This document shows, piece by piece, positions 24,901 to 44,912 of a stretch of 64,000 nucleotides of DNA. The stretch is from assembly GCA_948442255.1 (NCBI GenBank), contig CAOJRT010000003.1, positions 6,315 to 70,314 on the forward strand. Reading direction: 5' to 3'. A program made the translations under genes and the position numbers. How positions within the stretch are numbered: position 1 is the stretch's first letter; every line of letters begins with the position of its first letter. Origin of the DNA: an uncultured Bacillales bacterium. Its GTDB lineage: Bacteria > Bacillota_I > Bacilli_A > RF39 > UBA660. Below the pieces are notes generated by a model, which was given only the letters and a program-made list of their open reading frames with translations, searched no databases and was not told the DNA's origin.

Positions 24901-27618
24901 ACTTATAATTTGGTTGATGGTTCTAATGACTTTGTTTGTACGAACCAAGATCAAGATTTTAATTCAATTAAAGAAGCAACGACAACTTTAAATCAAGAGA
25001 ATTATGCTTGTATCGTAGATGTTTCTGCGAAAGTAGGAACAAATGCTAGTTTGAATTATCAGCAAGCTTTAACTGCTACAGAGAATATGACTGATTTTAG
25101 AGGAAATATTTTATCTGTTGGTGAGTATAATTCGCAAAATGGAGTGGCTGGAACAGGAAATCCTTATTGTCGTGTTACTTGTAAGGAAGATTGGACATTT
25201 AAAACGCCTGGATTTAGTAACTTTACTGGTGAAAATGCTGTAAAAGCTGGATCTTATTTCACAATTAATCAAAATATGGCTCTTGCTTCTACTAAAACAT
25301 GTGTAACGACTTATATTGATATTGATGGTTATAAACTTAATTTGGCAACTATTTCTAATTCGATAATGAATGCGACGAATGAATATAGAGCTCGTGCACA
25401 AGCTATGAGTAATCGAAATATAACATATGAACCTCATGAGTATTATACAACCTATGTTCGTAGCGGAAGTGAGAAAAATATGGTTACTTGTACAGCTGCA
25501 GATGCAGATAAAGAAGGATGTACTACTTCTACAGGTTATGGAACTTACCAATGTCCTACGGGTCAATGTGAATGCTCTTCAACTGGATGGCAACTTACTA
25601 ATGAGTGTAGTCAGACTCCTTCTACCCAAGTAACTGGTCAATACCAAGACGGTTATAAAGTAACTTATAAAGCACAAAAAGCAACTTGTAATGTTGCTAA
25701 GCTAAGTGTTTTGCCTGGAACTTATTACAATAGATATAATAATTATGTTTATGGCTCTGGTAATTTGAGTTCTAGTTTAGCGCCAATAGGTAGTACTAAT
25801 GAAGTTCTTAGCGGATTTGTAGCAGGAGATAGTGAAAAAACAGTCGTTTGTACTAATGAGAAATGTACGGCACAACTTCCAGATGGTACAGACGCAAATG
25901 GAAATCCTAAATATAAATATGTTGATGATTATATTGATATAAATAATAATCGTATCGCATTGGAGAGTAATGGAAGCTGTCAAACATTTACTACTGAGAC
26001 TGATGCTATCAATGCTTTAACACCAGGATTAACTTATAATGGTGAAAGCTTAACTGGATCAATGCAAAGATTATCTAATGAAGTAAATGCTTGGAATCAA
26101 CAAGCAAAGATTGCTTCTGATAATTTTGGAAAATGTCAAAATTTCTATATTTATAATAATAGAGATGTAGGAACAAATAGTACTGTGTATGGTGGAGCTG
26201 GTGCTTATGTTGTAGTTGGAGGCGGTGATACCAATCTTCAAAATTCTGGTTCTACTGTTAATATTTCTGATCTTTTTGATCCAGTGATTAAATATAAATA
26301 TGATGAAGAAACTTATATGAGTTATGTAGGAGATAATAATACTTATATTTTAGACAAATTTAATGGAGCTAGTACTAATACCTATTATTATAACGTAATT
26401 AATCCATCTACTTATTCTGGACAACAAGTTCCAAGTACATTACATGCAGAACAAAGACCATTATGTTATGTAGAAAATGGATATACTGGAAATTTCGATG
26501 GTGCTAAGATGTATTGTAAAGTTGTTAATTTCCATTATTATGATGCTCATTATATTAAAACTGAGCTTACTCAAGGAGGAACATTTAAGAATAATGTTAC
26601 TTGGTATACAAGACAATATGGTGGAATTATTTACCCAGGAACTGGTGGATCTGATGAAGAAAGACTTCAGAATGCGAAACGAAATTCGGGTAATTTAAAT
26701 GATACGATGGAGTGGACACGCTTAGGACAGAATGATGTGTTCCCAGTACAATTAAATACAAGAAGAAATGTATATCAATATGTATTTACTTTTGAAAATA
26801 TTGGTACTTATATGAGTGGTGATAAGAATCATAATAGTGAACAAGATTTAGGTAGAATTATGGGAAGTAGTACTTCGGTTGCTATGTATAACTTTAATAC
26901 TTGCTTCTATGAAGTTTATGAAGGTATGTGTTTATGTTGTGGTAGAACGATGAGTTCAACGGCTCGAGTAGAAAATGAAACTAATATAGATACTACGCAA
27001 TATGTTCCTAATCGTGGTAATAATTATAGTAACAATACGGCAAATTCTGTTAATTTAAATGCTAATGGAACATTAGGTTTCTATACAAATTCTGTATCAT
27101 TATCTGATTTGGCAGGAGCTTCTAATGGTTTTGCTAGTTCTTCTAACTGGGGAGATAAAAATGAATATTTCTATAATGGAAATATCTATTATACGGATAA
27201 AGGTTCTTCCTTAGTGTCTGCAATTGAGAACAAAGGGGAAACTATATATGGCGATACTCCTGAATACTCTTATACTTTGAATCCTAGTGCATTATCTGCT
27301 ATACGCAATATGGAACATAGTAAAAATTATGCTGTTCAAACAGGAGATTTGACGGCGATGGGTTCTTATAAAATGCAAGGAGGAGATGCCTCTAGTGATG
27401 GGGCTTCTAACGTTTTACTTACTCATTTTAAAAGTAATTTCTTAGATAAGATAAAAGAATATGAAACAGCTGAATATAAAGGTTTATTATTTACAAATAA
27501 ACAGATGGCAGATAAGTGTTATGTTACTAATGCTGCAGATGTTGGAAATTCTAATTATAAAGATTGTCGCTGGATAGATTACATGGATGATGATGGTTAT
27601 CGACTAGTGTTTAAATAG
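21940..27618 (+). CDS. giant secreted Cys-rich protein (1892 aa), putative adhesin/effector
   Basis: Signal peptide ending VYAAEA. No LPXTG and no C-terminal TM. About 46 Cys by my count. One Listeria-Bacteroides (Flg_new)-like repeat around aa 349-444. Confidence 0.8.
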   Translation: MKNLDIRKYAIFTIVCFLSFFGYRVYAAEAVVVTPGKPATLIGTMNYENAVCYVNNKQITPESEYNDGKYRVYYDDSKTDILIQSTQAGVGSDLSVFCTYDRHMEIVNSNKVEVGGKGDVTVSVSSFSFEGASRITLDMDEQFNSEYTITSWISNIGIMESVSINDARINTSACVAGTDTCKITLNSPVTSSGQVIGEIKYRDKDTGGQNTLTVIINIKDTWFLKADGGNYAKTCDFSSSLWEKRDGDSNVWYSKQGVDIAFNNVHFPSCEVDTDYNPLIEFKGWVYQKRDADLDANNAGLVNGNFQTVDYCTTVASKYPSLFGFVNAGQSVDPRDIHYGYVFACYASRGIALDMNGGTASLDGNVWKLYTSKDGLYSDKHGYNGLYTYTGGGNIALPSSVNPPAIYANTAEFVGWKNKKTGEVVPGGTTVNGNDGTIYTATFKQKGTSNGGSSGEAELGGYEIKTVFVGETSEIILQNGYTCTSYDSDNFSITNGGSVAGESRCKITGKASTNGQFINVPFVNTNGATFTYKIMVSTRDGLGGNLIIGNPTINIQINTDSLNNSNGGSGINASEGYGCQSFRVTKIRGDKSQTPLKSGDYQLDIMHYGLSCATAGYAELQYDSLCLDPGRTAPAVGDLYQYERRISPNWNDGSDMAQFDNAIAYLIFKTMNVSPKEDANGNNTHAYRKALTSANVAVRILEFVYNQDNGTNATQKLSSHYLTYLAIAANLKEKVRTGTVTYDDLVSATGGVSPSCEAGRYCLNEVAGNGQFSVIQEVVDLLNFRQVGKADIVISEMSHPKNEVKIDSIDGYIVNFSGKMTLPKASLVVPQQLFGQNFLVTLINRDANIKNAALTSQQCIEVDGHTECSYSGYVDTTPTGGVVPGGTNFAVKVAYKSNYSLDNAVLLKITHSTKIAQRFIAFNEHLEAFFYLNLSGSNNCNALIAAAGDSEENAQIAVNAGCCTVELQKTNPIFYNKYCRKNCTYDETYNLVDGSNDFVCTNQDQDFNSIKEATTTLNQENYACIVDVSAKVGTNASLNYQQALTATENMTDFRGNILSVGEYNSQNGVAGTGNPYCRVTCKEDWTFKTPGFSNFTGENAVKAGSYFTINQNMALASTKTCVTTYIDIDGYKLNLATISNSIMNATNEYRARAQAMSNRNITYEPHEYYTTYVRSGSEKNMVTCTAADADKEGCTTSTGYGTYQCPTGQCECSSTGWQLTNECSQTPSTQVTGQYQDGYKVTYKAQKATCNVAKLSVLPGTYYNRYNNYVYGSGNLSSSLAPIGSTNEVLSGFVAGDSEKTVVCTNEKCTAQLPDGTDANGNPKYKYVDDYIDINNNRIALESNGSCQTFTTETDAINALTPGLTYNGESLTGSMQRLSNEVNAWNQQAKIASDNFGKCQNFYIYNNRDVGTNSTVYGGAGAYVVVGGGDTNLQNSGSTVNISDLFDPVIKYKYDEETYMSYVGDNNTYILDKFNGASTNTYYYNVINPSTYSGQQVPSTLHAEQRPLCYVENGYTGNFDGAKMYCKVVNFHYYDAHYIKTELTQGGTFKNNVTWYTRQYGGIIYPGTGGSDEERLQNAKRNSGNLNDTMEWTRLGQNDVFPVQLNTRRNVYQYVFTFENIGTYMSGDKNHNSEQDLGRIMGSSTSVAMYNFNTCFYEVYEGMCLCCGRTMSSTARVENETNIDTTQYVPNRGNNYSNNTANSVNLNANGTLGFYTNSVSLSDLAGASNGFASSSNWGDKNEYFYNGNIYYTDKGSSLVSAIENKGETIYGDTPEYSYTLNPSALSAIRNMEHSKNYAVQTGDLTAMGSYKMQGGDASSDGASNVLLTHFKSNFLDKIKEYETAEYKGLLFTNKQMADKCYVTNAADVGNSNYKDCRWIDYMDDDGYRLVFK

Positions 27619-27633: not shown

Positions 27634-28095
27634 ATGAAAAGTTCGTATTGGGGTTATTGGCTAATACTACTTGGTGTCTTTATCGTAGGTGTTATGATGT
27701 TATCGCAAAATGCCACAACAACAGATACACAAGATTATTACCAATTAAAAGAAGTAGCAAATGGGGCTATCTATGATTCTATTGATTATTCTTACTATAC
27801 GCAAACGCATCAAGTAAGAATGATTAAAGAGTTGTTTGTTGCTAACTTTGTAAAAAGGTTTGCCAATACTGTGCCTATGACAAATACTTATAAAGTGGAT
27901 TTTTATGATTTATATGAATCTCCTCCTAAGGCTAGCGTGAAAATATCTACTACTTCAGGTACATTTGTTATAGCAGGGGGATCATCAAATCTTGACATTG
28001 TTAATTCCATTGATTTGATTGTAGCGTTTAATAATGGACAACTTGCTTCACCAGAAGGCGGACCAATTTTAAGTGGTTGTCCATATTATGATTAG
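27634..28095 (+). CDS. N-terminally anchored small exported protein, unknown function
   Basis: GGAAGGAGAG RBS. One N-terminal TM helix (WLILLGVFIVGVMML) followed by a ~120-aa soluble domain. Confidence 0.6.
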   Translation: MKSSYWGYWLILLGVFIVGVMMLSQNATTTDTQDYYQLKEVANGAIYDSIDYSYYTQTHQVRMIKELFVANFVKRFANTVPMTNTYKVDFYDLYESPPKASVKISTTSGTFVIAGGSSNLDIVNSIDLIVAFNNGQLASPEGGPILSGCPYYD

Positions 28096-28109: not shown

Positions 28110-28910
28110 ATGGGAAATATATTAGTGCCTTTTAAGAAATTTTTAAGTAATAAAAATACAATTACTATATTAGGTGTGTTACTAGGGTTAGTTGTTTTAT
28201 ATTTTGGATATACTTGGAGAATAAAACAAAGTATAAGTCCACAGATGGTTCCTTATGCTACACAGACTTTGCAATCAGGAACAAAAATTACTGAAGATAT
28301 GATTGGTTATGCGGAAATACCAAGAGATACGATTAATACAATGAGTGGTATTATTACAGATGTGAATGCTATTCGTAATAAGTTGGTCGCTTATGATAGC
28401 AAGATACCGGCAAGTGGTTTCTTCTTTAGCGATAATATAATTGATGAATCGGAAATGCCGGACTCTGTTTTTTCTAATATACGTGATGGTTATACTATAT
28501 TTACTTTAGATGTAGACAATCATTCTACTTATGGTAATTCTATTATGCCAGATAACAATATTGATTTATATTTGAAGACAACTGATGAGTCAGGTAATTT
28601 AGTGTTTGGACGTTTTATTACACAAATTCAGGTATTAGCAGTTAAAGATAGTAGTGGAAATGATGTTTTTGCAAATAAAGATGATTTGAAAGAACCTTCT
28701 CAATTATTATTTGCAGTACCAGAAGATTTGTTTTTATTACTTAGTAAAGCTTATTACTTAGGTAATTTTGAAATAATACCAGTTCCAAGAAATAGAACGT
28801 ATGCTAATAGTTCTGGGGCTACTGAAATTACCACGGAAGTATTACAACAAATGATAATTGAAAAGACATTTATTATACCTGGTGAGTGTACTGATATAAC
28901 AAATTGTTAA
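28110..28910 (+). CDS. CpaB/RcpC-like Flp pilus assembly protein (SAF domain)
   Basis: N-terminal TM helix, then VPYATQTLQSGTKITEDMIGYAEIPRD..., the pattern of the CpaB SAF domain. Confidence 0.55.
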   Translation: MGNILVPFKKFLSNKNTITILGVLLGLVVLYFGYTWRIKQSISPQMVPYATQTLQSGTKITEDMIGYAEIPRDTINTMSGIITDVNAIRNKLVAYDSKIPASGFFFSDNIIDESEMPDSVFSNIRDGYTIFTLDVDNHSTYGNSIMPDNNIDLYLKTTDESGNLVFGRFITQIQVLAVKDSSGNDVFANKDDLKEPSQLLFAVPEDLFLLLSKAYYLGNFEIIPVPRNRTYANSSGATEITTEVLQQMIIEKTFIIPGECTDITNC

Positions 28911-28936: not shown

Positions 28937-30376
28937 ATGGATGGAAATGTTTTCTCCCAAATGGATTTTGGTCCTCTTACAGAGTTTTTAGAAGATGATG
29001 ATGTAACAGATATCTCCTATAGTAATGGTGGACAAGTTTGGTTAAAAACATTGTCAAAGGGTATTTATCAAGTGGAACGACCTGATATTAATAATCCTTT
29101 TATGGAGAAATTAGCATTCCAGTGTTCAAATGTTATGGGTAGAACATTTAATATGGCTCATCCATTTTTAGATGCCGAGAGTGCTGAATTACGTATGAAC
29201 TTTGTACACGATTCCATTGCTACCAATGGAGTCGCTTGTTTAATTCGTAAAACTCCAGCAAAAATAAGATTAAATAAAGATAAATTACTTAATGAACAAT
29301 ATATTACAGAGCAAATGCATGATTTTTTAATTAAATGTGTTTGGGGACATTGTAATATTATGGTGGCAGGAGAGACTGGTTCTGGTAAAACAGAGTTAGT
29401 TAAATATCTTGCTTCGAATACTAAAGAAGATGAGAAGATTATCTCTATTGAAGATACATTAGAGCTTCACTTGGATAAAATATTTCCTCATCGTGATATT
29501 GTAGCGATGAAAACAAATAATATTGCGACTTATTCTGATTCTTTAGTTGCTTGTATGCGACAAAATCCAATTTGGATATTACTTGCTGAGGTACGTTCTG
29601 CTGAAGCTGTTATGGCAGTACGTAACTCTATATCTTCTGGACACCATATTATTTCTACTATCCATGCGGATAAAGCATCTAGTATTCCTATGCGTATGTA
29701 TGCTTTGCTAGAAGGAAGTCAAGATATTGAACAATATTTGTCTTCTATTCATCGTTATGTGCAAATTGGAATCTATGTTAAAGGATACTATTCTAAAGCT
29801 TTGGATCGTTTTCAACGTGAAATTATGGAAATATGTGAATTTTATGTGGATGATAAAACAAATAAACCGATGACGAATACTTTGTACTCTAAAACATTAG
29901 ATGGTAAAGTTACATTACGTAATCCCACAAAGAAATTATTGGATTATTTAGCTATTGGAAACATCTATTTTGATACAGATGATGTTTTTGGGCTAGGGGA
30001 TGCTGATACAAAAGAAGATATTAGTATTACAAGAGATGGAAGTAAAGATAATTTGGCGAATAAAGCTACAAATGTTAATTTGAATCAAATGAATCAATTT
30101 TTAAATGAAACAGAAGGTACTACTACTTCTGGTAGTGATGGGGCACAGATTTCTCCACAAAGGATTGTACCAAATGTAGCTTCTTTAGGTAATCAAGGAG
30201 TACAAGTTCAACCTGTAAAACCAATAGTACAAGCGAATCCTGTAATGCCGAAAACAACTGTTACACAGGTTCCTGGGACCTCACAAGTATCTAATGGTAA
30301 TTCGATAGGAGTACAACCTGTACGAGTAACTCCACTTGCTACACCATCTGTAGTGAGTGAAGCGGAAATATTATAA
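28937..30376 (+). CDS. CpaF/TadA-family secretion ATPase
   Basis: Walker A GETGSGKTE, Asp box IEDTLEL, Walker B ILLAEVRSAEA, His box GHHIISTIHA, plus a ~120-aa Q/V/P/T-rich C-terminal tail. Confidence 0.85.
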   Translation: MDGNVFSQMDFGPLTEFLEDDDVTDISYSNGGQVWLKTLSKGIYQVERPDINNPFMEKLAFQCSNVMGRTFNMAHPFLDAESAELRMNFVHDSIATNGVACLIRKTPAKIRLNKDKLLNEQYITEQMHDFLIKCVWGHCNIMVAGETGSGKTELVKYLASNTKEDEKIISIEDTLELHLDKIFPHRDIVAMKTNNIATYSDSLVACMRQNPIWILLAEVRSAEAVMAVRNSISSGHHIISTIHADKASSIPMRMYALLEGSQDIEQYLSSIHRYVQIGIYVKGYYSKALDRFQREIMEICEFYVDDKTNKPMTNTLYSKTLDGKVTLRNPTKKLLDYLAIGNIYFDTDDVFGLGDADTKEDISITRDGSKDNLANKATNVNLNQMNQFLNETEGTTTSGSDGAQISPQRIVPNVASLGNQGVQVQPVKPIVQANPVMPKTTVTQVPGTSQVSNGNSIGVQPVRVTPLATPSVVSEAEIL

Positions 30377-30389
30377 GGAAGGTGAAGAT

Positions 30390-31283
30390 ATGGAATTAGT
30401 TTTATGGATTATAATAGCCGTATTTGTTTTAGCGTATCGCTATAATACAGGGGATAATGTGTATAAGTTCTTGTCTGATACAATAGCTAATGTCTATAAT
30501 ACTTACGCTCCTTATAGTTTTAGAGAAGTAAGAGAAAAAACAAAAGAATTGGGGTATGAGTATACTCCTAAACAATATGCTATGCAAATCCTTTTTTTAG
30601 GAGGAGCAGCTGGAATTATCACCTTTATGTATTTCTATAGTTTGCCTATAACGATTGTGTATGTTACGATTGCTATTTGTTTTGTTCCTTATTTGGCTTA
30701 TTTAAGAACGCAAAGGTTATATAGTGAATACTTATTTGAGCAAATACAAGTTTATACGACTAACGTTATTATGGAGTTTAACACAACCCAGAGTTTTGTA
30801 AAATCTTTAGAAGGAGTTAGAGATTCGGGGATTTTGGAAGATCCTGTTCTTCGTGATGTAAAAACGATGATACAGATGTCTTATGAAAATGGTACTATTG
30901 ATGAGTCAATTGAGTTCTTTAATCAAAAATATCCTTACTATATGGTAAAAAATATGCATCAACTTTTCTTGCAAATAACAAAAGAAGGAGCTAGAGATTC
31001 TGGAGAAGCCTTAGAGCTTATGTCTATGGATATAGATGCTTTAGTCGAAGGAGTTTATCGTGATCGAATGGATAGACAGACTTTCCATAAAAAATTTGTT
31101 ACCTTTGGTTTTGCTTTATTTCTACTTGTCATGGTTATGCAACTCTTGTTTGGTAGAGAGTCTTATATGGAACTTTTGGAGTCTTGGTATGTGCCTATAA
31201 TCTTACATGCTATTATTATTATCAATTGTTATTTCTTAGTAACGGGGGAAAAATACTATAATGAAGACGTAGGAGTTGAGTGA
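30390..31283 (+). CDS. TadB-like platform membrane protein (T2SS-F fold)
   Basis: AAGGAAGGTGA RBS. TM helix, two TM helices, a ~130-aa cytoplasmic helical domain, then terminal TM helices. Lies next to the CpaF-like ATPase. Confidence 0.55.
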   Translation: MELVLWIIIAVFVLAYRYNTGDNVYKFLSDTIANVYNTYAPYSFREVREKTKELGYEYTPKQYAMQILFLGGAAGIITFMYFYSLPITIVYVTIAICFVPYLAYLRTQRLYSEYLFEQIQVYTTNVIMEFNTTQSFVKSLEGVRDSGILEDPVLRDVKTMIQMSYENGTIDESIEFFNQKYPYYMVKNMHQLFLQITKEGARDSGEALELMSMDIDALVEGVYRDRMDRQTFHKKFVTFGFALFLLVMVMQLLFGRESYMELLESWYVPIILHAIIIINCYFLVTGEKYYNEDVGVE

Positions 31284-31284
31284 T

Positions 31285-32073
31285 ATGTTTATTGAGATTC
31301 TAGTAATTGGTGTCCTTGCTTTTGTTATTTTAACAGTAAATGGATATATAAAACCGAATAAGTTTATTGTAGATAATCAAGATATTTTCATGCGTCTTAA
31401 AGAAGAAGATTATGCCTTTTTAGTAAAAGCAAAATATGGGGATGGGTTAGATCCTGATGTACTTTTTCAAAAAAGAATTCGTAATGGAATGGTTGTTATT
31501 GTCTTATTAATTTTTATGATGTTGAGTAGTTTGACTGCTGTTAAAGTCGTTGTAGCGTTTGTAGGTGGATTTGTAGTATTTAAATTAGATTATCTTAATT
31601 TACAAAATTATTATAAAGCGCATTTGTTACAAATTGATTCTATGTTGCCTTATTATTTGAAAGGCTTAGAAATATTAATACAACACTACACAGTACCAGT
31701 TGCTATTGGTAAATCAATTGCTGACGCACCTGAGATATTCCGTGATGGTTTGGTGGAACTAATTAATAAAATAAATGCTGGAGATTCTACGGTTGGTCCT
31801 TATATGGAATTTGCTAAGACCTATCCAGTAAGAGATTCTATGCGTATGATGCGTCTTTTGTATCGATTGAGTTTAGGTAGACAAGAAAGAAAACAAGAGC
31901 AGTTAATTACATTTTCTAAAACGATTTCTAATTTACAACAAAAGGCAAGAGATACTCGTTATAAAGCGAGACTTGATAAGATGGAAAGTAAGACGATGAG
32001 TATGTTAGTTTGTACTGGTGTAGGTGTTATGATTTTACTTGTTATAGCTGTTATGAATATGATGGGAACTTAA
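31285..32073 (+). CDS. TadC-like platform membrane protein (T2SS-F fold)
   Basis: AGGAG RBS 9 nt upstream. Same topology class as the preceding gene. Confidence 0.55.
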   Translation: MFIEILVIGVLAFVILTVNGYIKPNKFIVDNQDIFMRLKEEDYAFLVKAKYGDGLDPDVLFQKRIRNGMVVIVLLIFMMLSSLTAVKVVVAFVGGFVVFKLDYLNLQNYYKAHLLQIDSMLPYYLKGLEILIQHYTVPVAIGKSIADAPEIFRDGLVELINKINAGDSTVGPYMEFAKTYPVRDSMRMMRLLYRLSLGRQERKQEQLITFSKTISNLQQKARDTRYKARLDKMESKTMSMLVCTGVGVMILLVIAVMNMMGT

Positions 32074-32098
32074 GCAAATGAAAGTTTGCTTTTTTTTT
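32073..32098 (+). terminator. rho-independent terminator after the tadC-like gene
   Basis: AGCAAA-TGAAAG-TTTGCT followed by T8. Confidence 0.6.
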
Positions 32099-32123
32099 GG
32101 CTGAAACTTTTTTCAACTTTTTG

Positions 32124-32155
32124 TTGACAAGTTGTTACGAGGGGAGGGGTATAAT
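32124..32155 (+). promoter_or_regulatory. candidate promoter of pilin A1
   Basis: TTGACA ... TATAAT, but with a 20-nt spacer by my count, so non-canonical. Confidence 0.3.
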
Positions 32156-32193
32156 AGTAATAGATATTAGATAATAGAGGAGGATATAAATAT

Positions 32194-32496
32194 ATGAAAG
32201 AAGCAACAGGAGAATTAAATATGACTGTTATTACAGTAGTTGCTATTGCAGCTGTTGGATTGATCTTTACCATGTTTGTTTGGTCAAACATTCAAGCTAA
32301 CTTAATGATGAATACAGCTTGTTCCAATATAGATATGAATGGGAATTATTCGGCGCAATTAACAGATGATGGAACTTCTTCAGCAACTTCTAGAGGAGAG
32401 GGGACAGTATTTTGTTCTGGTTTTGAGTGCACGGCTACTTATAATGGAAGGGAATATAAAAAGCAATGTAATGGTAACAGAGTAGCAGAAAAATAA
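32194..32496 (+). CDS. Flp/Tad-type pilin-like protein A1 (100 aa)
   Basis: GAGGAGGA RBS. MKEATGELN + hydrophobic helix MTVITVVAIAAVGLIFTMFVW, then a small 4-Cys globular part. Confidence 0.65.
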   Translation: MKEATGELNMTVITVVAIAAVGLIFTMFVWSNIQANLMMNTACSNIDMNGNYSAQLTDDGTSSATSRGEGTVFCSGFECTATYNGREYKKQCNGNRVAEK

Positions 32497-32532
32497 AGTT
32501 GGATTCAAATTGAAAAATAGAAGTTTACAAAA

Positions 32533-32667
32533 ATGAAAGAAGCTATTGGTGAATTTCATTCTTTGCTTTTATGTGCTCTACAATATAAAAAGTATGTAAT
32601 ATAGAATGAGATGTTTAGATGTTGTGGGATATAATGAAAATAATTTAACTTATTGTTATATACCTGG
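32533..32667 (+). pseudogene. decayed copy of the 77-aa pilin-like gene
   Basis: The first 22 nt are identical to 33109-33130. The TM-coding segment is deleted, there is an in-frame stop after 23 codons, and the 3' part again aligns with 33240-33298. Confidence 0.65.
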
Positions 32668-32737
32668 AACTGGGAATATAAGTGAATGAGAGGTTGCTTT
32701 TTTCTTTACAACTTTTGTCTATTTTTTTTTGTTTTTC

Positions 32738-32766
32738 TTGATAATAAAATAGGAAGGGTGTATAAT
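32738..32766 (+). promoter_or_regulatory. sigma-A-type promoter of pilin A2
   Basis: TTGATA-17 nt-TATAAT, about 40 nt upstream of the 32808 start. Confidence 0.55.
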
Positions 32767-32807
32767 AACAATAGATAATAAAATAATAGAGGAGGATTTG
32801 ATTATAT

Positions 32808-33089
32808 ATGAAAGAAGCGACAGGAGAATTAAATATGACCGTTATTACAGTAGTTGCTATTGCAGCAGTTGGTTTAATCTTTACCATGTTTGTTTGGCCA
32901 AACATTCAGGCTAATTTAATGATGAATACAGCTTGTTCTAACATGGATATGAATGGAAATTATGAAGCTGCTGATAAAACAGCTCAGTCAGGAGAGGGAA
33001 CTATTAAATGTTCGAATTTTATATGTACTGCCACTTATAACGGAAGACAGTATCAGAAGGATTGTACACCTTCTAGTGCTAAAAAATAA
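32808..33089 (+). CDS. Flp/Tad-type pilin-like protein A2 (93 aa)
   Basis: 50 of the first 52 residues are identical to A1. The C-terminal half is divergent but keeps 4 Cys. Confidence 0.65.
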   Translation: MKEATGELNMTVITVVAIAAVGLIFTMFVWPNIQANLMMNTACSNMDMNGNYEAADKTAQSGEGTIKCSNFICTATYNGRQYQKDCTPSSAKK

Positions 33090-33108
33090 TAATTAGGAGT
33101 TGAACTAA

Positions 33109-33342
33109 ATGAAAGAAGCTATTGGTGAATTAAATGGTACGATTATAGTTATATCAGCCGTTGCTTTACTGGCGGCTTTTTTCTTTACTTTTATGTGGCC
33201 TAATTTACAAAGGGGAATGAAATATAGAGCAAGATGTTCAGATGCTATTTGTGATGTAGGATATAATGAAAATAATTTAACTTATTGTTATATGCCAGGC
33301 GATGATAAAACGAATTATTTTGAGTGTCCATATAAAGGGTAG
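33109..33342 (+). CDS. pilin-like protein C (77 aa)
   Basis: MKEAIGELN + hydrophobic helix, with a 4-Cys C-terminal part. Confidence 0.6.
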   Translation: MKEAIGELNGTIIVISAVALLAAFFFTFMWPNLQRGMKYRARCSDAICDVGYNENNLTYCYMPGDDKTNYFECPYKG

Positions 33343-33352
33343 GTGAAGCAGA

Positions 33353-33880
33353 ATGAAGGAAGCTATTGGAGGTACTTGGATTTTTGGTATTGTTATAACG
33401 CTAGTAGCTTTTTTTACTGCGTTTATTAGCTTTTCTTTAAATTACTCTCGTTGTTATAAAGTAAAAAATGAGATGCTAAGTGTTATTGAACGTAACAATG
33501 GTGTAAATAAGGACTCTATTACAGAAATTAATAAATATATAAATAGTATTGGTTATAGTGGAGTAGGAAAGTGTGAACCGCAGGCGAATGCGGCTTGTTT
33601 GGTTGGGTTTAAGAAAAATGATAATACACAATCTTTTACTAGTATTTCTACACAACAGTATAATTATTGTATAGAGAAGATGGTTATGAATCGTGATGGG
33701 AAGAATAGTCAAATAACAGGAATGCCAACCTCTGCCTACTATCATGTTCGCGTATTTTTTACATTAGATATGCCTGTTGTAGGACAATTCTTTAATTTGA
33801 AAGTAGAGGGAGAAACGGCTACTGTCTATTTGCCTAATGATGCGAATCATTTTACTAATTGTTCTGTAAAGGATGAGTAG
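33353..33880 (+). CDS. TadE-like minor pilin/pseudopilin (175 aa)
   Basis: MKEAIGG + hydrophobic helix TWIFGIVITLVAFFTAFISF, then a ~140-aa domain. Confidence 0.5.
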   Translation: MKEAIGGTWIFGIVITLVAFFTAFISFSLNYSRCYKVKNEMLSVIERNNGVNKDSITEINKYINSIGYSGVGKCEPQANAACLVGFKKNDNTQSFTSISTQQYNYCIEKMVMNRDGKNSQITGMPTSAYYHVRVFFTLDMPVVGQFFNLKVEGETATVYLPNDANHFTNCSVKDE

Positions 33881-33894
33881 AGGGGAGTGTTCTT

Positions 33895-34446
33895 ATGAAG
33901 GGTGCTATTGCTAATGTTTGGTTTATTGGGATTATGGTAACTTTTATTTTTCTATTTTCTGCTTATATAATTGTTACTGTAGAATACTCTAAATCTTTGA
34001 AATATAAAAATGTTGTCTTAAATATAATTGAAGAAAATAGTGGAATGATTAATAATTCTGCTGTTCAAACGAAGTCTTCAATCGTTATTCCTGGAAAAAC
34101 AGTAAAAAATCCAAAAGGGACTATCCAAAAGATTAATGTTTATTTGGCTGGAAGTGGATATTCAGCAATGGGGGTCTGTCCTACAGATGATGGATATATT
34201 TGGTATGGTGTAGATGATTTAAGTACTGAAGTAACTCCTTCTATTAAAAGAGCCGAGAAAAATAAAAAGTATTATTATTGTTTTGCTAAGTTTAAGAATT
34301 CTAATAAAAATACAAATTATTATAAAATTAGACTTTATTATAAATTTCAGCTTCCTGTAGCTGGTTTTGAAGCTGCATTTAAGATTGATGGAACGACGAA
34401 GGATATTTATGGAGTTAAAGACTCTGGATGGGAAATTAGTAGATAA
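33895..34446 (+). CDS. TadE-like minor pilin/pseudopilin (183 aa)
   Basis: MKGAIAN + hydrophobic helix VWFIGIMVTFIFLFSAYIIV. Paralogous organisation to the preceding ORF. Confidence 0.5.
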   Translation: MKGAIANVWFIGIMVTFIFLFSAYIIVTVEYSKSLKYKNVVLNIIEENSGMINNSAVQTKSSIVIPGKTVKNPKGTIQKINVYLAGSGYSAMGVCPTDDGYIWYGVDDLSTEVTPSIKRAEKNKKYYYCFAKFKNSNKNTNYYKIRLYYKFQLPVAGFEAAFKIDGTTKDIYGVKDSGWEISR

Positions 34447-34458: not shown

Positions 34459-35526
34459 GTGAATGTTATTGTTTCTAATAAATATTCAGCTATGTTATCT
34501 GGATTAAATAATAATCCTAATATAGATTTAATTAAAACGGTAAATGGTGAATTTGATGTTGATAGTTTAATTGCTCAATTTCAAAATTTCTTTTTTAATA
34601 AAATGATTCTTGATATAACTGCGATTAAAGGGTATCAAGATATTTCGCAAATACAGCGTTTGTCTTTTGGAATGGATATGGGTAAAATTATTTTACTCTT
34701 GGATGATTCAGAAGTGGTTAATTCTCCACAATATCTTTCTGAGTTGGTTTCGATGGGGATTTATAATTTTACAAGGAATATAGAAGCGATTCCTTATTTA
34801 GTAGAAAATCCAAATAAGTATAAGGATGTAGCTCAATTCCATTTGTTGGGACAGAGTGGTGCGAGTGATTCTTCTACTGGTGGAGGAACATTCCTGGGAA
34901 GAGGAACTTCTAATAGCCAAGATTTTATTGAACCTATCCCTTCTACCCCTAATATGAGTCCTACAAGAGTCATTGGGTTTATTAATTTAACGGAGCATGC
35001 AGGAGCGACTTCTTTGATTTATATGTTGAAGAAGCAACTTTCTTTATACTATCGTGTTAGATGCTATGAAATAGATAAAAATGACTTTATTTATTTTAAT
35101 GATCCTGATTTGAATAGTGTAAGTAGTACAGAGTTTGCTGCTATTATAAAAAATCCGATGAATGTTCATGTTGTTTTGGTTGACTTGAATAATAGTTCTT
35201 TAGAAAATGAATGCTCTGAGGTGGTTTATTTGATTGAACCTACTACTTTAATGTTAAATCGTATGATTCGAAAAGATAGAAGTATATTAGATAAAATAAA
35301 AAATCGTGTTGTTGTATTAAATCAAAGTTTACTTAATCAAAATGATGTAAAAGATTTTGAAAGTGAAGCAGGGTGTATTGTTTTTTCTAATATTCCTCCT
35401 TTGGATGATAAAAAAGAGAGACATCGTTCGATTGATGAGTTCTTAAATAAGCTTGGGTTTGACAAAAATAGACCAACTGGAGAGGGTAATAAGGGGGCAA
35501 AATTGTTTGGAATTGTCAAAGAGTGA
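34459..35526 (+). CDS. TadZ/CpaE-like protein (receiver-like N-domain + degenerate ParA/MinD-like domain)
   Basis: GTG start 6 nt after AAGGAGAG. A CheY-like alternating pattern (KIILLLDD...LVSMGIYNF), a G/S-rich linker, then VIGFINLTEHAGATSL in place of a KGGxGKT P-loop. Confidence 0.45.
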   Translation: MNVIVSNKYSAMLSGLNNNPNIDLIKTVNGEFDVDSLIAQFQNFFFNKMILDITAIKGYQDISQIQRLSFGMDMGKIILLLDDSEVVNSPQYLSELVSMGIYNFTRNIEAIPYLVENPNKYKDVAQFHLLGQSGASDSSTGGGTFLGRGTSNSQDFIEPIPSTPNMSPTRVIGFINLTEHAGATSLIYMLKKQLSLYYRVRCYEIDKNDFIYFNDPDLNSVSSTEFAAIIKNPMNVHVVLVDLNNSSLENECSEVVYLIEPTTLMLNRMIRKDRSILDKIKNRVVVLNQSLLNQNDVKDFESEAGCIVFSNIPPLDDKKERHRSIDEFLNKLGFDKNRPTGEGNKGAKLFGIVKE

Positions 35527-36451: not shown

Positions 36452-39067
36452 ATGCTTTTAGGTAATATTATTAAAGATGGATTTTTGGGTATTATTTTAA
36501 CGTTAGATTCTATAATTTATTCTTTAATTAGTTCTGCTTATAAAATTTTTATGGCTTTAGCTGGAGCTAGGTTATTATCGACAGATGCTTATACAGCAAT
36601 TGCCAATAAAATTTATATAGTGGTTGGGGTTGTTATGCTTTTTGTTCTTGCATATGCTATGTTAAAAGCTATTATAGATCCTGATCAAGCTGCTAAAGGA
36701 GATTTGGGAGGACCTAAGCTTATTAAGCATGTAATTATAGCGGTTATAGGGCTTGCTGTTGCTCCTGTTTTATTTAATTTACTTTATCAAGTACAAGGGC
36801 TTGTTATGGAAAATAATGTTTTGGGAAAATTATTTTTTAGAAGTGATAATGAAACCTATGACTATCCTGATATTACAATAAATAACGGGGAAGAAACTGT
36901 TATGGTTCCTATGGATGAAGAATCTAATTATTATAATAATATGATACAAAAAATAGGAGGAGCTCATGTAGCAACAACGATATGGCAAGCTTTCTTTTAT
37001 CCTGTAGAAGAAGGGCAAGAGTCCGAAATTGAAGCAGATTCTAGTGTTTTACATGTAACTAGTGTAGGATTAGGGCTCGGATGTGCTGTAGGTATAGGTG
37101 TTGCTATTGCTGGTGTAGTTGGATCGTTTTTTACGGCAGGAACATCTTTACTTATAGCTGGAGCTGGTTTAGCTGCTTGTGTTGCATCTGCCTCTACAGA
37201 AGGGAAAGCTAATAAAATTGATGAGTTGCTTAATGGTAAAACATTTACTTTAGAAGAGGCTTATATTTATACCTCTTCTGAAGGAGACTTTTGGATATAT
37301 CAAGGATTTATAGAACCTTTAAGCGATGATGAAATTCATTACTCCTGGTTTTTGTCGACCGTGGTTGGCTTATTTGTTGCTTATGCTTTCGTAACTTTTA
37401 GTATTGACATGGGAATGCGTGCTGCTAAACTTGCTTACTATCAGATTATTGCGCCAATACCGATTATTTTACAGATATTACCCAAATTTAAAGATTCTTT
37501 TAATAAATATATTAAATCTGTTATTTCTACATTTATAGAAGTGTTTATTCGTATTACGGTTGTTTATGTTATTGTTTATATTATGTGTCATTTAACCGAT
37601 ATGTTTTCTACTTCTGCGATGTGGGCAGGCATGAATTTACCTGAGAGAATGCTAGCGAGAGCTCTACTTATGGTGGGATTAGTCTTATTTGCTAAACAAG
37701 CACCTAAAATGATTGGAGAAACGTTTGGTATTCAAAGTGGAAGTCTAGACTTAGGTATTCGTAAGAAACTTGCTGAAGGTGGTGCTTTTACGGCGGGAGC
37801 TTTCCTTGGAGGAGGAATTTCTACAGGAGTACGAGCTATGACGAATGCAGGTGCTAATATTAAAAAGAATTGGAATGATAAAGTTAAAGGCCAGACTTTT
37901 GCTAATGGAAGAGAAAAATTTAAAGCTGGGGCTTCTGTTATTGGGGGCGGAATAGCAAGAGGAGCTTTAAGTACAGTTGCTGGAACAGCTTCTGGTGCTG
38001 TAAGATCTGGATATGCAGGACGTAAGGCCGCCAATGTTAAAGATATGCAATCAGCAGCAAGAGAAGGTATTGGAAGAGCCACTTTAAAAAGAGATCAAAG
38101 AGCGACTTACCGAGATTCACATCAAGCGATGAAAATAGATGAGTTAGAAGATGCAGTAAGAAAAAATACTGCTGGAAAAACTGGTATTAAAAAATGGACA
38201 GCAGGGATTTCTACAATTGTAGGTGGTACTGGAGTTGCTGGAGGTCACGCTCAAGATGCTGTTACTAGTGTACTTCGTTGGGCAGGTATTTCGAATACAG
38301 AGACTTTGAAAAAAGAATTAGAAGGTGTCGACAAATTCGATAAAAGTTTGGATGATTTAAAAAATGCTGCTAAAACTCTAATAAATGGAGATGCCCAGAA
38401 AAATAAAAATAAGGACTATGGCGTTAAAGAAAACTTTGATTACTCTAAATTGAATGATAAATTGAAGAATAATAGTTATGTCCAACAAACTTTTAAAAAT
38501 TTTTCTACGGCTACCTTAAATACATTGCAAAAACAATTAGAAATAGCTAAAACAAAGGGTGAGATAGATATTGGAGGTAACAAGTTTTCTTATGAGGACT
38601 TAGCTGCGATTGAAGGTTTGTATGTTAAACAGTTTACAGAAAAAGTTGCTAACCGAGCTTTAGCAACAGAAGAACACTATAATAGTTATACTGTTACCGA
38701 AAGAACTGATTTAGCAGATGTTCGTTCTGCTGCTGCCGCATTCAAAAATGAATTACAGAAGAACATAGGATCCTCTGTTGTTGCGGATGCGATTGATGAT
38801 ATGGGAGCAGCTATCGTTTACAATAGTGATGGCTCTATTGATTATGATAAAGATGCACAAGGAAATATAATTGGATATCGAAGAACAACTGCCAATAGTA
38901 AAGTTACTTCTGCTGATATTACTTCTACCGATTTACGTATTGATAATGAAGGTATGATTAGTAAAATTCAAGATGCTGCAAAACGTAGAAGAGCGAAAAT
39001 TAAAGAAGATTTGGCTGATCGTCAAGCGAAAGAAGAAGCTTCTGGAAAAGATAATAAAAATAAATAG
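36452..39067 (+). CDS. VirB6/TrbL-like polytopic channel protein with long C-terminal hydrophilic domain
   Basis: 871 aa. About 8 TM helices in the first ~430 aa, including Gly/Ala-rich helices, then a ~440-aa soluble K/A/G-rich region. Its position matches ConG/TcpH-type genes. Confidence 0.55.
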   Translation: MLLGNIIKDGFLGIILTLDSIIYSLISSAYKIFMALAGARLLSTDAYTAIANKIYIVVGVVMLFVLAYAMLKAIIDPDQAAKGDLGGPKLIKHVIIAVIGLAVAPVLFNLLYQVQGLVMENNVLGKLFFRSDNETYDYPDITINNGEETVMVPMDEESNYYNNMIQKIGGAHVATTIWQAFFYPVEEGQESEIEADSSVLHVTSVGLGLGCAVGIGVAIAGVVGSFFTAGTSLLIAGAGLAACVASASTEGKANKIDELLNGKTFTLEEAYIYTSSEGDFWIYQGFIEPLSDDEIHYSWFLSTVVGLFVAYAFVTFSIDMGMRAAKLAYYQIIAPIPIILQILPKFKDSFNKYIKSVISTFIEVFIRITVVYVIVYIMCHLTDMFSTSAMWAGMNLPERMLARALLMVGLVLFAKQAPKMIGETFGIQSGSLDLGIRKKLAEGGAFTAGAFLGGGISTGVRAMTNAGANIKKNWNDKVKGQTFANGREKFKAGASVIGGGIARGALSTVAGTASGAVRSGYAGRKAANVKDMQSAAREGIGRATLKRDQRATYRDSHQAMKIDELEDAVRKNTAGKTGIKKWTAGISTIVGGTGVAGGHAQDAVTSVLRWAGISNTETLKKELEGVDKFDKSLDDLKNAAKTLINGDAQKNKNKDYGVKENFDYSKLNDKLKNNSYVQQTFKNFSTATLNTLQKQLEIAKTKGEIDIGGNKFSYEDLAAIEGLYVKQFTEKVANRALATEEHYNSYTVTERTDLADVRSAAAAFKNELQKNIGSSVVADAIDDMGAAIVYNSDGSIDYDKDAQGNIIGYRRTTANSKVTSADITSTDLRIDNEGMISKIQDAAKRRRAKIKEDLADRQAKEEASGKDNKNK

Positions 39068-39091
39068 AATAAAAAAAGGGATGTGTGATCT

Positions 39092-39436
39092 ATGGATAAT
39101 AAAAATAACACTTACTTAATACCAGCCAACTCCAAAAAGTCAATGTTAATACTTGGTTTTTTTACAGGTTTTGATTTGGCATTATTCTTAACTGGTTTGG
39201 GAATTACGATTATATTTTTGTTGGTTATTAAAAGTTCTAATTTACTTGTTATGGTAGGGCTATTGTCTCCAGCATTATTAGCTGCTTTTTTAGTAGCACC
39301 TGTGCCAAATTATCATAATGTATTAACATTAATACAAAATATATATCGTTTTTATACAGGAAGAAAAAAGTATTATTGGAGAGGATGGTGTGCTAGATAT
39401 GAGTCAGCAAAGTCAAACAGTACAAATTCAAAATAG
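39092..39436 (+). CDS. PrgI/VirB3-like small membrane protein
   Basis: 114 aa with two adjacent TM helices after YLIPANSKKSMLILGFFTGFDL. Directly precedes VirB4. Confidence 0.55.
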   Translation: MDNKNNTYLIPANSKKSMLILGFFTGFDLALFLTGLGITIIFLLVIKSSNLLVMVGLLSPALLAAFLVAPVPNYHNVLTLIQNIYRFYTGRKKYYWRGWCARYESAKSNSTNSK

Positions 39437-39974
39437 TAGTCGATATACAGATGATTGGGTTCCAATTAAGAGTATTTTAAATGGAATGATACAATTAGAT
39501 AATGGATATTATGTTTCGGGAGTTAAAATATCACCTAAAAACTTATTTATTTTAGATGAGAGTGAAAGAGAAGTCGTTTTATTTAACTTACAAAATCTTT
39601 ATAATATGATAGATTATGAATATTGGATGGTTGTAGCTGATCGTCCTGTTGATATTAATTTGTATTTATCTGAATTACAATTGATGTATCAAAATTCGAC
39701 TGATGGAGCAATTCGTAAATTGATACTGCAAGATATTAATAAAGCAAATGCCTTTATGGGGGCAGAATATAATGTAGTTGATACAGAGTATTTTATTCTA
39801 TTTAAAGAGAAGAGATTAGAAGTTGTGCAGAAACGAATTCATTCTTTGATTGGTGGTTTTGCTAATGCAACTATGAATGCTTCGCAAGTAACTAATGCCG
39901 ACTTGCGTATGATTTTAGATAACTTCTTAAATGGTGGTATGACTACTATGTTTGGGACGGTGATGGCAGCATGA
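39399..39974 (+). CDS. VirB4-family protein, N-terminal domain as a separate ORF
   Basis: DDWVPIKSILNGMIQLDNGYYVSGVKISPKNLFILDESERE resembles the N-terminus of Gram-positive VirB4 proteins (Tn916 Orf16/ConE type). Ends in an ATGA overlap with the next ORF. Confidence 0.6.
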   Translation: MSQQSQTVQIQNSSRYTDDWVPIKSILNGMIQLDNGYYVSGVKISPKNLFILDESEREVVLFNLQNLYNMIDYEYWMVVADRPVDINLYLSELQLMYQNSTDGAIRKLILQDINKANAFMGAEYNVVDTEYFILFKEKRLEVVQKRIHSLIGGFANATMNASQVTNADLRMILDNFLNGGMTTMFGTVMAA

Positions 39975-41755: not shown

Positions 41756-41788
41756 AAGTGAAACTTGCTTTTTTTCTTGGCTTTTTTA

Positions 41789-41797
41789 TGCTATAAT
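41789..41797 (+). promoter_or_regulatory. extended -10 element upstream of the hydrolase gene
   Basis: TGCTATAAT about 25 nt upstream of the 41823 start. No clear -35. Confidence 0.35.
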
Positions 41798-41822
41798 TCT
41801 TTTAGTATGAACGGGTGGTACT

Positions 41823-44090: not shown

Positions 44091-44091
44091 T

Positions 44092-44841
44092 ATGAAATGT
44101 AAAATAATTTTGTTGGTTGTATTTCTTCTTTTGTTATGTGGGTGTAGTGCAGAGGTGCATTTATCTTTTGATGAGAATGGGATAAAAGAAGAAGTGTCTA
44201 TTACTCGTTTTGCAGATCAAAATATGTCTAAAACGATGGTTTATAATCAATACAGAGAGTTTATTCCTGCTTATCATATGGTAGAAGTTCCCGATCCTCA
44301 GCCTGATATAAAAATAGAAGGGATTAGTTACTATAATCGAACTGTTACTGATTTAGGAAATGGGTATCGTTTCTTATATAGTTATACTTATCCATTACTT
44401 AGCTATAATAGAGCAAGAAGTGTAAAAAATAGTTTTAAATCGCCTTATATAAGCAAAGATGAAGAGGGGATTATTACAATTTCTACAGATAAAGGTGGAA
44501 ATATGTTGTTAACACAATATGAAGATTTAGAACGAGTGAAGGTTACGATTGATACAAATGGATATGAAGTTTTAGAATCGAATGGGGTATTTTCAAATGG
44601 AGTTTATTCTTGGGATTTTTCGCAAACGGATAATACAAATTCTATTTACTTGAGTATAAAGAAAAAAGTAGAGGATTCTTCTTTTAATAAACCTGAAAAT
44701 TTAGATCAAATGCAAGAGGAGAAAAAAGAGGAGGAGAATTTTTTACAATCACATCCTTTTGTAGTTATAGCGATTGGAATTGGGGGCTTTTTTATACTTC
44801 TAATTCTTCTTCTAAAAATGAAAACACATAAATATGAATAA
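44092..44841 (+). CDS. lipoprotein with additional C-terminal TM anchor, unknown function
   Basis: LLLLCGCSAE lipobox and terminal VVIAIGIGGFFILLILLL helix. AAGGAG RBS. Confidence 0.6.
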   Translation: MKCKIILLVVFLLLLCGCSAEVHLSFDENGIKEEVSITRFADQNMSKTMVYNQYREFIPAYHMVEVPDPQPDIKIEGISYYNRTVTDLGNGYRFLYSYTYPLLSYNRARSVKNSFKSPYISKDEEGIITISTDKGGNMLLTQYEDLERVKVTIDTNGYEVLESNGVFSNGVYSWDFSQTDNTNSIYLSIKKKVEDSSFNKPENLDQMQEEKKEEENFLQSHPFVVIAIGIGGFFILLILLLKMKTHKYE

Positions 44842-44912
44842 AAGAAGTTAAACTTCTTTTATTTTTAATTGATTATGTAGTATAATAGGAATAGATTTGG
44901 AGTGATTTATTC

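Follow-up and report, generated by a model that had tools for sequence, protein, structure and literature searches.

Among characterised systems, the closest relative of the genes described here is the run of genes 34–41 in the conjugation operon of the pLS20 plasmid family, which encode the Tie adhesin, p36, the 'VirB11' p37 and p38–p41 and after which VirD4 and the remaining genes are found. Genes 36 and 38–41 of pLS20 are listed as 'Unknown', and Gram-positive elements are said to form no conjugative pili (PMC8557374, 2021). Gram-positive classes of type IV secretion system (T4SS) are also said to lack pilin genes (PMC12102498, 2025, on the Patescibacteria T4SS), and a 2025 T4SS review mentions neither Tad nor pLS20 (PMC12857230). 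Here we analysed 64,000 nucleotides from an uncultured Bacillales bacterium (GTDB lineage RF39, UBA660; assembly GCA_948442255.1, contig CAOJRT010000003.1, positions 6,315 to 70,314), hereafter the window, which at 32194–34446 carries five genes for small proteins with an MKEAxG-type N-terminus. These proteins are most likely pilins with a non-canonical class III-type signal, encoded in a previously unrecognised locus that is a hybrid of Tad-like and T4SS genes.

A preceding sequence-only reading had described five open reading frames (ORFs) for pilin-like proteins, and all five are present at the coordinates and with the N-termini that it gave. They lie on the plus strand and encode a 100-residue major pilin (32194..32496; N-terminus MKEATGELNMTVITVVAIAAV), in which an MKEATG leader is followed by a 22-residue hydrophobic helix and a head with four Cys; a 93-residue second copy with an identical N-terminus (32808..33089; residues 1–12 are MKEATGELNMTV); a 77-residue protein (33109..33342; MKEAIGELNGTIIVISAVALL, MKEAIGELNGT...); and two minor pilin-like proteins of 175 residues (33353..33880; MKEAIGGTWIFGIVITLVAFF, MKEAIGGTW...) and 183 residues (33895..34446; MKGAIANVWFIGIMVTFIF, MKGAIANVW...). 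In all five, about 22 hydrophobic residues directly follow the MKEAxG or MKGAIA leader, and the four Cys reported for each of the three short proteins were confirmed from the sequence. A GGAGG ribosome-binding site lies 5' of the first pilin ATG, and there is no earlier in-frame start codon.

The five-gene picture nevertheless has to be corrected, since both MKEATG genes and the decayed gene copy noted at 32533 are products of a single tandem duplication of about 610 bp (32063..33300, plus strand; repeat families D1–D6, spacing 576–632). The decayed copy does start with MKEAIGE: it is the beginning of a duplicated 77-residue pilin gene and reads MKEAIGEFHSLLLCALQYKKYVI (MKEAIGEFHS...) up to a stop codon (32533..32604), with a further fragment of the same gene copy at 32620–32667, both on the plus strand and both in repeat families D2, D3 and D6. 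The repeat unit comprises a hairpin plus T-run, a promoter-like region and a ribosome-binding site, then the gene for the major pilin and the first part of that for the 77-residue protein. The duplication, which lies behind two of the five pilin ORFs, is recent, and its repeats are breakpoints of public metagenome assemblies (32632–32656 and 33259–33293). Related loci usually carry four pilin genes, one for a protein of about 80–100 residues, one for 77 residues and two for about 160–190 residues. A TTGATA-17-TATAAT promoter-like element is found at 32738–32766, such sites being no commoner here than in shuffled sequence, and four public 'RNA-Seq' runs that contain the window have a flat, DNA-like contig depth that is uninformative on expression.

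Family counts and synteny were taken over 87 loci fetched from uncultured gut Bacilli, around which the scans for peptidases reached 10 kb to each side. The 93- and 77-residue pilins are paralogues (BLASTP 1e-14, hhalign 99.8%), as are the 175- and 183-residue proteins (BLASTP 5e-21, hhalign 100%), and the 77-residue family could be aligned to the N-terminus of the 175-residue family (hhalign 89%). Within the major-pilin family the first ~34 residues are near-invariant, the heads go down to about 40% identity, and all four Cys are invariant. A near-invariant N-terminus with variable heads, in a set of one major and several minor paralogues, is the pattern of pilins as far as it can be read from sequence. 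Searches of the five proteins against Pfam and NCBIfam returned only sub-threshold noise (DUF1523, HRM and BasC, E = 0.037); membership in an unrelated family of small membrane proteins, which the sequence-only reading had named as evidence to the contrary, was thus not found in these two collections.

Throughout these families the leader recurs with little variation. The pattern M-[KR]-x-[ASTG]-x-[GAS] was present in 87/87 major pilins, 67/68 members of the 77-residue family, 116/127 of the 175-residue type and 25/28 of the 183-residue type, a recurrence which, judged on the sequences, is far above chance. Lys or Arg occupies residue 2 in 87/87, 67/68, 124/127 and 28/28 members, respectively (306/310 for the four families together). 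Residue 6 is Gly in all 87 major pilins; it is Gly in 61, Ser in 6 and Thr in 1 of the 77-residue proteins, Gly in 108, Ser in 11 and Ala in 3 of the 175-residue type, and Ser in 13, Gly in 7, Ala in 5 and Val in 3 of the 183-residue type, so that 25 of these 28 have Ser, Gly or Ala. That residue 6 stays small and residue 2 stays Lys/Arg across four paralogous families suggests a shared processing site, as a prediction from sequence. Likewise, among the 150 best representatives at 50% identity, 138 start with M[KR][EDTA][AS]xGEL[NSD].

In the major pilin, residues 1–12 are fixed over the 87 loci, apart from a single Leu at residue 10. Codons 3–6 are nonetheless free at their synonymous sites, Ala4 being encoded by GCA (38), GCT (35) or GCG (14) and Gly6 by GGA (47), GGT (33) or GGC (6), while the position of the start codon, ATG or TTG, is constant. 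Over the pilin genes in general, ATG, TTG and GTG starts all share one position, and the six-residue length of the leader is therefore fixed. Because synonymous codons drift while the residues and the start position stay, we conclude that the leader peptide and its length are under purifying selection.

The sequence-only reading had also held that these N-termini fit neither the type IV motif (G/FxxxE) nor that of Flp pilins, and this was borne out, with the G/FxxxE, Flp and PilFind motifs all failing. The PilFind rule demands [GAS]-x4-[DE] followed by at least 14 uncharged residues, with Gly, Ala or Ser at −1 (PMC3244431); it was satisfied by 0/87, 0/68, 2/127 and 0/28 members of the four families and by all four canonical pilin controls from the same lineage. 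None of the five pilin proteins matched the Pfam N_methyl, Flp or TadE models or contained a G-x4-E-[YF] motif, and the Flp/TadE regular expression used as a control did pick out genuine Flp and TadE genes in L059 and L097–L120. Describing the leader as 'ultra-short', on the other hand, was an overstatement, since canonical Flp/TadE leaders of this lineage have 4–5 residues (MKKG, MNKRG, MGKRG). Cleavage after residue 6 would give a mature major pilin starting Glu1-Leu-Asn-Met-Thr5. The VVAI stretch then falls in the same six-residue register as what we take to be the corresponding type IVa stretch, with Glu in place of Phe1 and Thr in place of Glu5. Mutational work on PilD substrates has established that Gly at −1 is critical and that positions +1 and +5 carry little weight for cleavage, which makes MKEATG|E a plausible peptidase substrate.

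The pilin genes belong to a single long array of genes on the plus strand (21188–47513) and are preceded by a Tad-like block. This block begins with a DUF5411 gene (27634..28095; Pfam 1.7e-49), followed by a gene for a CpaB/RcpC-like SAF protein (28110..28910) with matches to RcpC (4.6e-4) and TIGR03177 (1e-7) that are both below cut-off (20.5 vs. 28.8 bits and 31.5 vs. 71 bits, respectively) and with hhalign 99.7% to a Priestia SAF protein. The next gene encodes a secretion ATPase of the TadA/CpaF/VirB11 family (28937..30376; T2SSE 3.7e-26, above the Pfam cut-off), which also has below-cut-off matches to the VirB11, TadA, TrbB and FlaI models. It is followed by genes for a TadB-like (30357..31283; phmmer 4e-15 and hhalign 93.8% to a Priestia protein) and a TadC-like platform protein (31276..32073; phmmer 3e-12 and hhalign 97.3% to the Priestia counterpart). 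Neither of the two has a direct Pfam match, and their platform identity is by transitive homology only: they are named after their homology to two proteins encoded next to the ATPase, on its 3' side, in a Priestia koreensis plasmid, of which the counterpart of the TadB-like protein is annotated as T2SS F family (Pfam T2SSF 3.4e-5, just below cut-off). The label 'pilin-like' is supported both by this adjacency to a Tad-like ATPase and platform and by the predicted helix-plus-sheet fold.

On the 3' side, the pilin genes are directly followed in 85 loci by a gene for p355, an orphan cytoplasmic protein of 355 residues (34459..35526, plus strand in the window) that has a HAGAT motif and is rich in invariant Asp, Glu, Ser and Thr. 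An identity of p355 as TadZ/ParA was considered and found no support by Pfam, by a PDB-sequence profile or by hhalign to ParA/TadZ proteins. Two VirB2-like (T4SS_pilin) genes come next (35597–35938 and 36011–36436, plus strand; PF18895 5.8e-5 and 1.3e-4, both below cut-off), and up to four such genes occur in other loci. To our knowledge, Gram-positive T4SSs are usually said to be without VirB2 homologues. The array ends with a Gram-positive-type T4SS core (36452..47513, plus strand) encoding an 871-residue VirB6-like protein, VirB3-like and TraC-like proteins, VirB4 (P-loop_TraG and AAA_10), a hydrolase with a SpoIID domain, a 249-residue protein and VirD4 (T4SS-DNA_transf 9.1e-54). Over the 87 loci, the major pilin, the 77-residue pilin, the two minor pilins, p355 and the first VirB2-like gene form an invariant block; the Tad-like genes are usually 5' and the T4SS core usually 3' of it, and either side may be missing locally.

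An AlphaFold2 model of the major pilin (42 sequences) consists of a helix over residues 5–44, kinked near Pro31, and a four-stranded sheet, with a mean predicted local distance difference test (pLDDT) score of 76. The predicted shape is the 'lollipop' of pilins, a long helix packed on a beta head, and the fold evidence is descriptive only because a Foldseek search against PDB gave nothing significant. The model of the DUF5411 protein (pLDDT 66) comprises a transmembrane (TM) helix, a polar Thr-rich linker, three helices and a five-stranded sheet, and Foldseek against PDB gave nothing significant for it either. Its arrangement resembles NTF2/VirB8 folds, among weak, non-significant matches that include KSI, SnoaL-like and NTF2-like proteins. 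The DUF5411 protein starts much like the pilins, with MK[ES]SYWG (MKSSYWG in the window) and then a TM segment; it was not counted as a sixth pilin, its model being that of an anchored globular protein rather than a pilin.

In the explanation that we favour, and to which we would give an even chance of being right, the gene products are the pilins of a Tad-like filament machine, with a divergent class III signal that is cut after residue 6 by a peptidase acting in trans. The machine would consist of the TadA ATPase, the TadB-/TadC-like platform and the CpaB-like protein, placed within a chromosomal Gram-positive-type T4SS locus of gut Bacilli, and the pilin set would comprise one major pilin (duplicated in this genome), one 77-residue paralogue and two minor pilins of ~175 residues. 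The pilins would insert with the N-terminus inside by means of a class III-type signal, M-[KR]-x-[AST]-x-[GSA] followed by ~22 hydrophobic residues, and an A24-family prepilin peptidase encoded elsewhere would remove the six leader residues. The TadA/B/C motor would pull the subunits out of the membrane and stack them via their N-terminal helices. The four invariant Cys of the head would form two disulfides, possibly made by the neighbouring membrane-anchored thioredoxin, and the filament would make the cell-cell contact needed by the adjoining T4SS, perhaps in concert with the giant surface protein of the locus.

Several observations weigh against this explanation. PilFind fails on 308 of the 310 family members, and the putative site is unusual: Lys/Arg is found at −5 and not at −2, position −4 is acidic, and positions +1 and +5 are occupied by Glu and Thr, respectively. 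The leader of the major pilin is as invariant as the helix that follows it, as if it were retained in the mature protein. No A24-like gene was found in the window or within 10 kb past its left end, and TM scan, motif pairs and two profiles revealed none up to 10 kb to each side of the 87 loci; for this genome, both the cleavage and the peptidase are predicted from sequence. The Foldseek search with the major-pilin model yielded no pilin-related match with an E value below 1, and in some genomes the pilin block adjoins T4SS genes with no Tad genes nearby.

The last two of these points would also suit proteins that are not filament subunits at all but membrane-anchored accessory parts of the T4SS, of a wall-spanning channel or for surface recognition, which share an N-terminal anchor. 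The make-up of the invariant block, with pilins, p355 and a VirB2-like gene, and the presence of the four-Cys head behind ordinary TM anchors and in tandem fit this as well. We nevertheless think it improbable, since an ATPase and two platform proteins, the hallmark of filament assembly, lie 5' of the pilin genes in most loci, the N-terminus is conserved to an extreme degree next to variable heads in major and minor paralogues with a common leader, and the model has a helix and small sheet instead of a separate anchor, linker and domain. The four-Cys head was observed behind ordinary TM anchors in the set P0258, P0260, P0278, P0305, P0356, P0358, P0361 and P0371; some such heads follow two predicted TM helices and some occur as two or three tandem copies, and the head therefore appears to be a modular extracellular domain. 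In about ten loci the gene directly 5' of that for the major pilin encodes a YfhO-like GT-C glycosyltransferase; in L011, L012, L021, L038, L040 and L060 it separates this pilin gene from TadC, and the other loci are L018, L019, L045 and L059. An Asn-x-Thr/Ser pattern is kept at residues 9–11 of both small pilins and might conceivably be linked to glycosylation.

The claim of the sequence-only reading that the locus encodes no prepilin peptidase holds for the whole 64-kb window, in which no A24-like ORF is present. Its polytopic ORFs are Rce1-like, VTT, BacA, FtsW, MurJ, YfhO, TadB/C-like and VirB6/B3-like, and no GxGD or GD.K motif in a hydrophobic context was detected in the 64 kb. The same reading had proposed a distant peptidase as one solution; an A24 search over the window and the fetched loci confirmed the absence from the window, and that the enzyme is encoded elsewhere is something we still infer. 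Of the two profiles used, one was built from seven TadV genes that adjoin TadA in unrelated metagenome loci and the other from Bacillaceae CpaA-like proteins. Other polytopic ORFs of the 87 loci were read by their motifs as a Ca2+/cation exchanger, Lgt, VanZ-like proteins, a ZIP transporter, PAP2, a thioredoxin-CcdA fusion and CPBP proteins, and yielded no A24 candidate.

The lack of a nearby peptidase in the window and the 87 loci could be taken at face value, with the pilins unprocessed, the six N-terminal residues kept on the assembled subunit and the Tad-like motor working without a prepilin peptidase. In such subunits Lys2, Glu3 and Glu7 would replace the charge pairing of the N-terminal amine and Glu5, and Gly6 would be structural. 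Residues 2–6 of the major pilin, invariant despite synonymous drift and in this respect like the adjoining helix, would agree with this, as would the leader's nearly neutral charge (Lys plus Glu), which is unlike typical basic leaders. In the pLS20 family, moreover, the small TM proteins among p36–p41 have short polar N-termini in which Gly is not conserved at −1, and no peptidase is annotated in the stretches fetched around the module. We regard this as unlikely, albeit with a substantial chance of being true. As far as we know, an A24 peptidase is needed by every characterised type IV filament system, and the unprocessed state would leave unexplained why a small residue 6 and Lys/Arg 2 are kept in four divergent paralogous families. 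The gene content of the lineage and of the related Bacillaceae, considered next, speaks against it too.

Canonical class III substrates are encoded on the same contigs as MKEATG pilins. One such contig has three canonical type IV pilins (KG|FTLIE) beside three tyrosine recombinases (L044:5251–7319), and another has a canonical operon of Flp (G|QALVEY), two TadE-like proteins, TadZ, TadA, TadB and TadC (L059:15336–20186). The lineage therefore almost certainly has an A24 peptidase, which argues against unprocessed pilins. No A24 gene was found within 10 kb in 25 canonical Tad loci related to the latter operon (L097–L121; TadA identity 62–78%, GC 23–29%), so that even for orthodox pilins of this lineage the peptidase is evidently encoded elsewhere. 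Since the canonical Tad operons equally have none nearby, a missing peptidase in cis says little about processing of the MKEAxG pilins.

In related Bacillaceae modules, by comparison, a candidate enzyme does stand in cis. Polytopic plasmid proteins of 172–188 residues matched the TadV profile with E values of 5.6e-11 to 2.2e-5 (L008:1461–1979, L091:10001–10558 and L093:10001–10564); they have D...N and PGDTK motifs and no Pfam match, and JGI lists one of the 172–188-residue proteins as 'Flp pilus assembly protein protease CpaA'. The 172-residue Priestia ORF, itself without a Pfam match, is tied to TadV-type peptidases via its homologues and the profile. Their sequences suggest that these proteins are divergent prepilin peptidases of DUF5411-type Tad modules, and such modules would then carry a TadV-like peptidase in cis, as recognised by the profile, a further point against unprocessed pilins. 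In one Bacillaceae module of the DUF5411 type, a pilin-like protein has MSEG as its first residues and a hydrophobic segment after them.

A protease outside the A24 family might also remove the leader, the candidate in the window being an Rce1-like CPBP intramembrane protease encoded upstream and divergently from the locus (19931–20605, minus strand). Its EExxxR, FxxxH and HxxxN motifs are intact, and 16 of the fetched loci, the rearranged L059 among them, have a CPBP and a metallophosphoesterase gene standing divergently beside the first locus gene (19008–21076, minus strand, in the window). Gene order is kept just as well in the wider neighbourhood (FtsW, CotZ, PTS EIIB), however, so the adjacency may be ordinary conservation of gene order. 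No such gene lies near pilin blocks that lack upstream Tad genes (L018, L035, L041), and a polytopic ORF with an apparent CPBP-like ExxxR motif stands at an unrelated place beside the canonical Tad locus L099. As we know of no case in which a CPBP protease acts on pilins, we consider this role very improbable.

For the favoured reading, in which a trans-acting A24 enzyme cuts the leader, the neighbouring genes offer candidates for disulfide formation and contact. A TM-anchored, PedC-like thioredoxin with a CTHC motif (20621..21076, minus strand) may be the oxidoreductase for the pilin disulfides; it lies beside the CPBP and metallophosphoesterase genes in the window and was detected in only four of the 16 loci with that arrangement. 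In L013 (14479–15702), L022 and L073, the VirB2-like gene is followed by one for a 403-residue thioredoxin which, by its motifs, is fused to a CcdA/DsbD-like membrane domain. The thioredoxin genes fit a need for disulfide formation in the four-Cys pilins and the Cys-rich giant protein. The first genes of the locus (21188..27618, plus strand) encode a 250-residue protein that bears a signal sequence and is anchored by its C-terminus and, within the same interval, a Cys-rich surface protein of 1892 residues, a presumed adhesin with no Pfam match; the position of both is conserved.

The flanks consist of housekeeping genes (TyrRS, TrpRS, FtsW, RmuC, BacA, MurJ and sporulation genes). None of the ORFs scanned belonged to a relaxase or integrase family, and megablast of the locus against plasmids and phages gave no match. 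Given that the housekeeping flanks are conserved across species and that no integrase or relaxase is present, the locus is chromosomal and vertically inherited, with no obvious mobile element. By analogy with the T4SS of Patescibacteria, a relaxase-free chromosomal locus (21188–47513) may point to a contact-dependent lifestyle rather than to conjugation.

At 90% identity the relatives of the 93-residue protein fall into 2037 clusters, at 50% into 555, and 509 stretches of species-representative genomes match the pilin pattern; despite these numbers the MKEAxG family escapes PilFind, Pfam and NCBIfam entirely. The sources of the relatives are all uncultured gut metagenome-assembled genomes, labelled Bacilli, Tenericutes, Mollicutes, 'Mycoplasma sp.', Candidatus Coprovivens, and Clostridium sp. 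CAG:628 and CAG:1000, names which suggest Bacilli of the RF39/RFN20 type with small genomes. The organism of the window itself is present in mouse gut metagenomes. In the literature we found no description of the pilin family, of its leader strings or of the module as Tad-like, and nothing on DUF5411, on Tad in Gram-positive conjugation or on RF39/RFN20 pili that describes an MKEAxG pilin family.

Pilins of this kind would widen the range of class III-type signals to sites at which position −5 is basic, +1 is Glu and +5 is Thr. The locus physically joins a Tad-like filament module to a Gram-positive-type T4SS, a class of system that is still reviewed as pilus-free. If the subunits were unprocessed, a rule so far valid for all type IV filaments would be broken; the peptidase-free apparatus would then be chromosomal, relaxase-free and vertically inherited, and may serve obligate cell-cell attachment as the Patescibacteria T4SS does. 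Going further, such a filament, assembled without a prepilin peptidase and retaining MKEAxG, could be a pilus or pseudopilus integral to Gram-positive T4SSs, with the pLS20-family relatives as the missing 'conjugative pilus', a proposal we hold to be rather unlikely. Because the homologous pLS20 genes 36 and 38–41 are published as 'unknown', the reading is testable in a tractable Bacillus plasmid.

Compared with described filaments, the pilins combine traits of several classes. With type IVa pilins (PilA) they share a leader of about six residues that ends in Gly, about 20 hydrophobic residues including VVAI, a helix with a small sheet (predicted here) and disulfides in the head (proposed here). 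They differ in having Glu for Phe at +1, Thr for Glu at +5 and the basic residue at −5 instead of −2, in giving no N_methyl match and in being PilFind-negative. Archaeal type IV pilins and archaellins, processed by PibD, FlaK or EppA, are similar in their short leaders and in Gly, Ala or Ser at −1, and archaeal class III sites do not require Glu at +5. Archaeal sites normally have Lys/Arg at −2, however, and no archaeal-type peptidase or pilin family was matched here, the marginal hit to the NCBIfam bindosome pilin BasC being non-significant.

The likeness to Tad/Flp (type IVc) systems extends to the whole module: a CpaF/TadA-family ATPase, TadB- and TadC-like platform proteins of one domain each, a SAF protein that resembles CpaB/RcpC below the family cut-offs, and a row of small pilin genes with very short leaders ending in Gly, for which the peptidase may be encoded elsewhere. 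Unlike Flp pilins, which are headless (mature length ~40–60 residues), the major subunit here has a predicted beta head, and the pilins of the locus have neither the G/XXXXEY motif nor a match to the Flp/TadE Pfam models. In further contrast to Tad systems, no TadZ or TadV is recognisable, and the module is embedded in a T4SS locus. The T4SS of Patescibacteria is likewise of monoderm type, chromosomal, found in apparently small genomes and accompanied by arrays of T4SS_pilin-like genes, and it is essential for epibiotic growth (PMC12857230; related account PMC12102498). It belongs to another phylum, and the system described here has in addition a Tad-like module and a separate pilin set joined to the T4SS. 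The Pcp locus of pCP13 was rejected as a relative, its published description being without pilus or pilin content.

The pLS20 family remains the nearest counterpart. Its genes are plasmid-borne with a typed MOBP relaxase, no CpaB-like gene was detected among them, and its small proteins have neither the MKEAxG leader nor the four-Cys head; p40 aligns weakly to the N-terminus of the 175-residue protein (hhalign 54%). The Tad-like module stands between the Tie adhesin and the T4SS in Bacillus velezensis pDSYZ (L009, 9403–13262) and Listeria pLIS25 (L010, 8988–13026), and it includes 47-residue, Flp-sized proteins. In spite of these differences, the gene order is alike, with an adhesin, a DUF5411-like gene, an ATPase, two polytopic proteins and small TM proteins followed by T4SS genes. 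Homology runs along the module as well, from DUF5411 and pLS20 p36 (hhalign 88.8%) through the ATPase and p37 of the family (1e-45) to TadB and p38 (5.5e-6) and TadC and the p39 of Listeria (9.5e-5).

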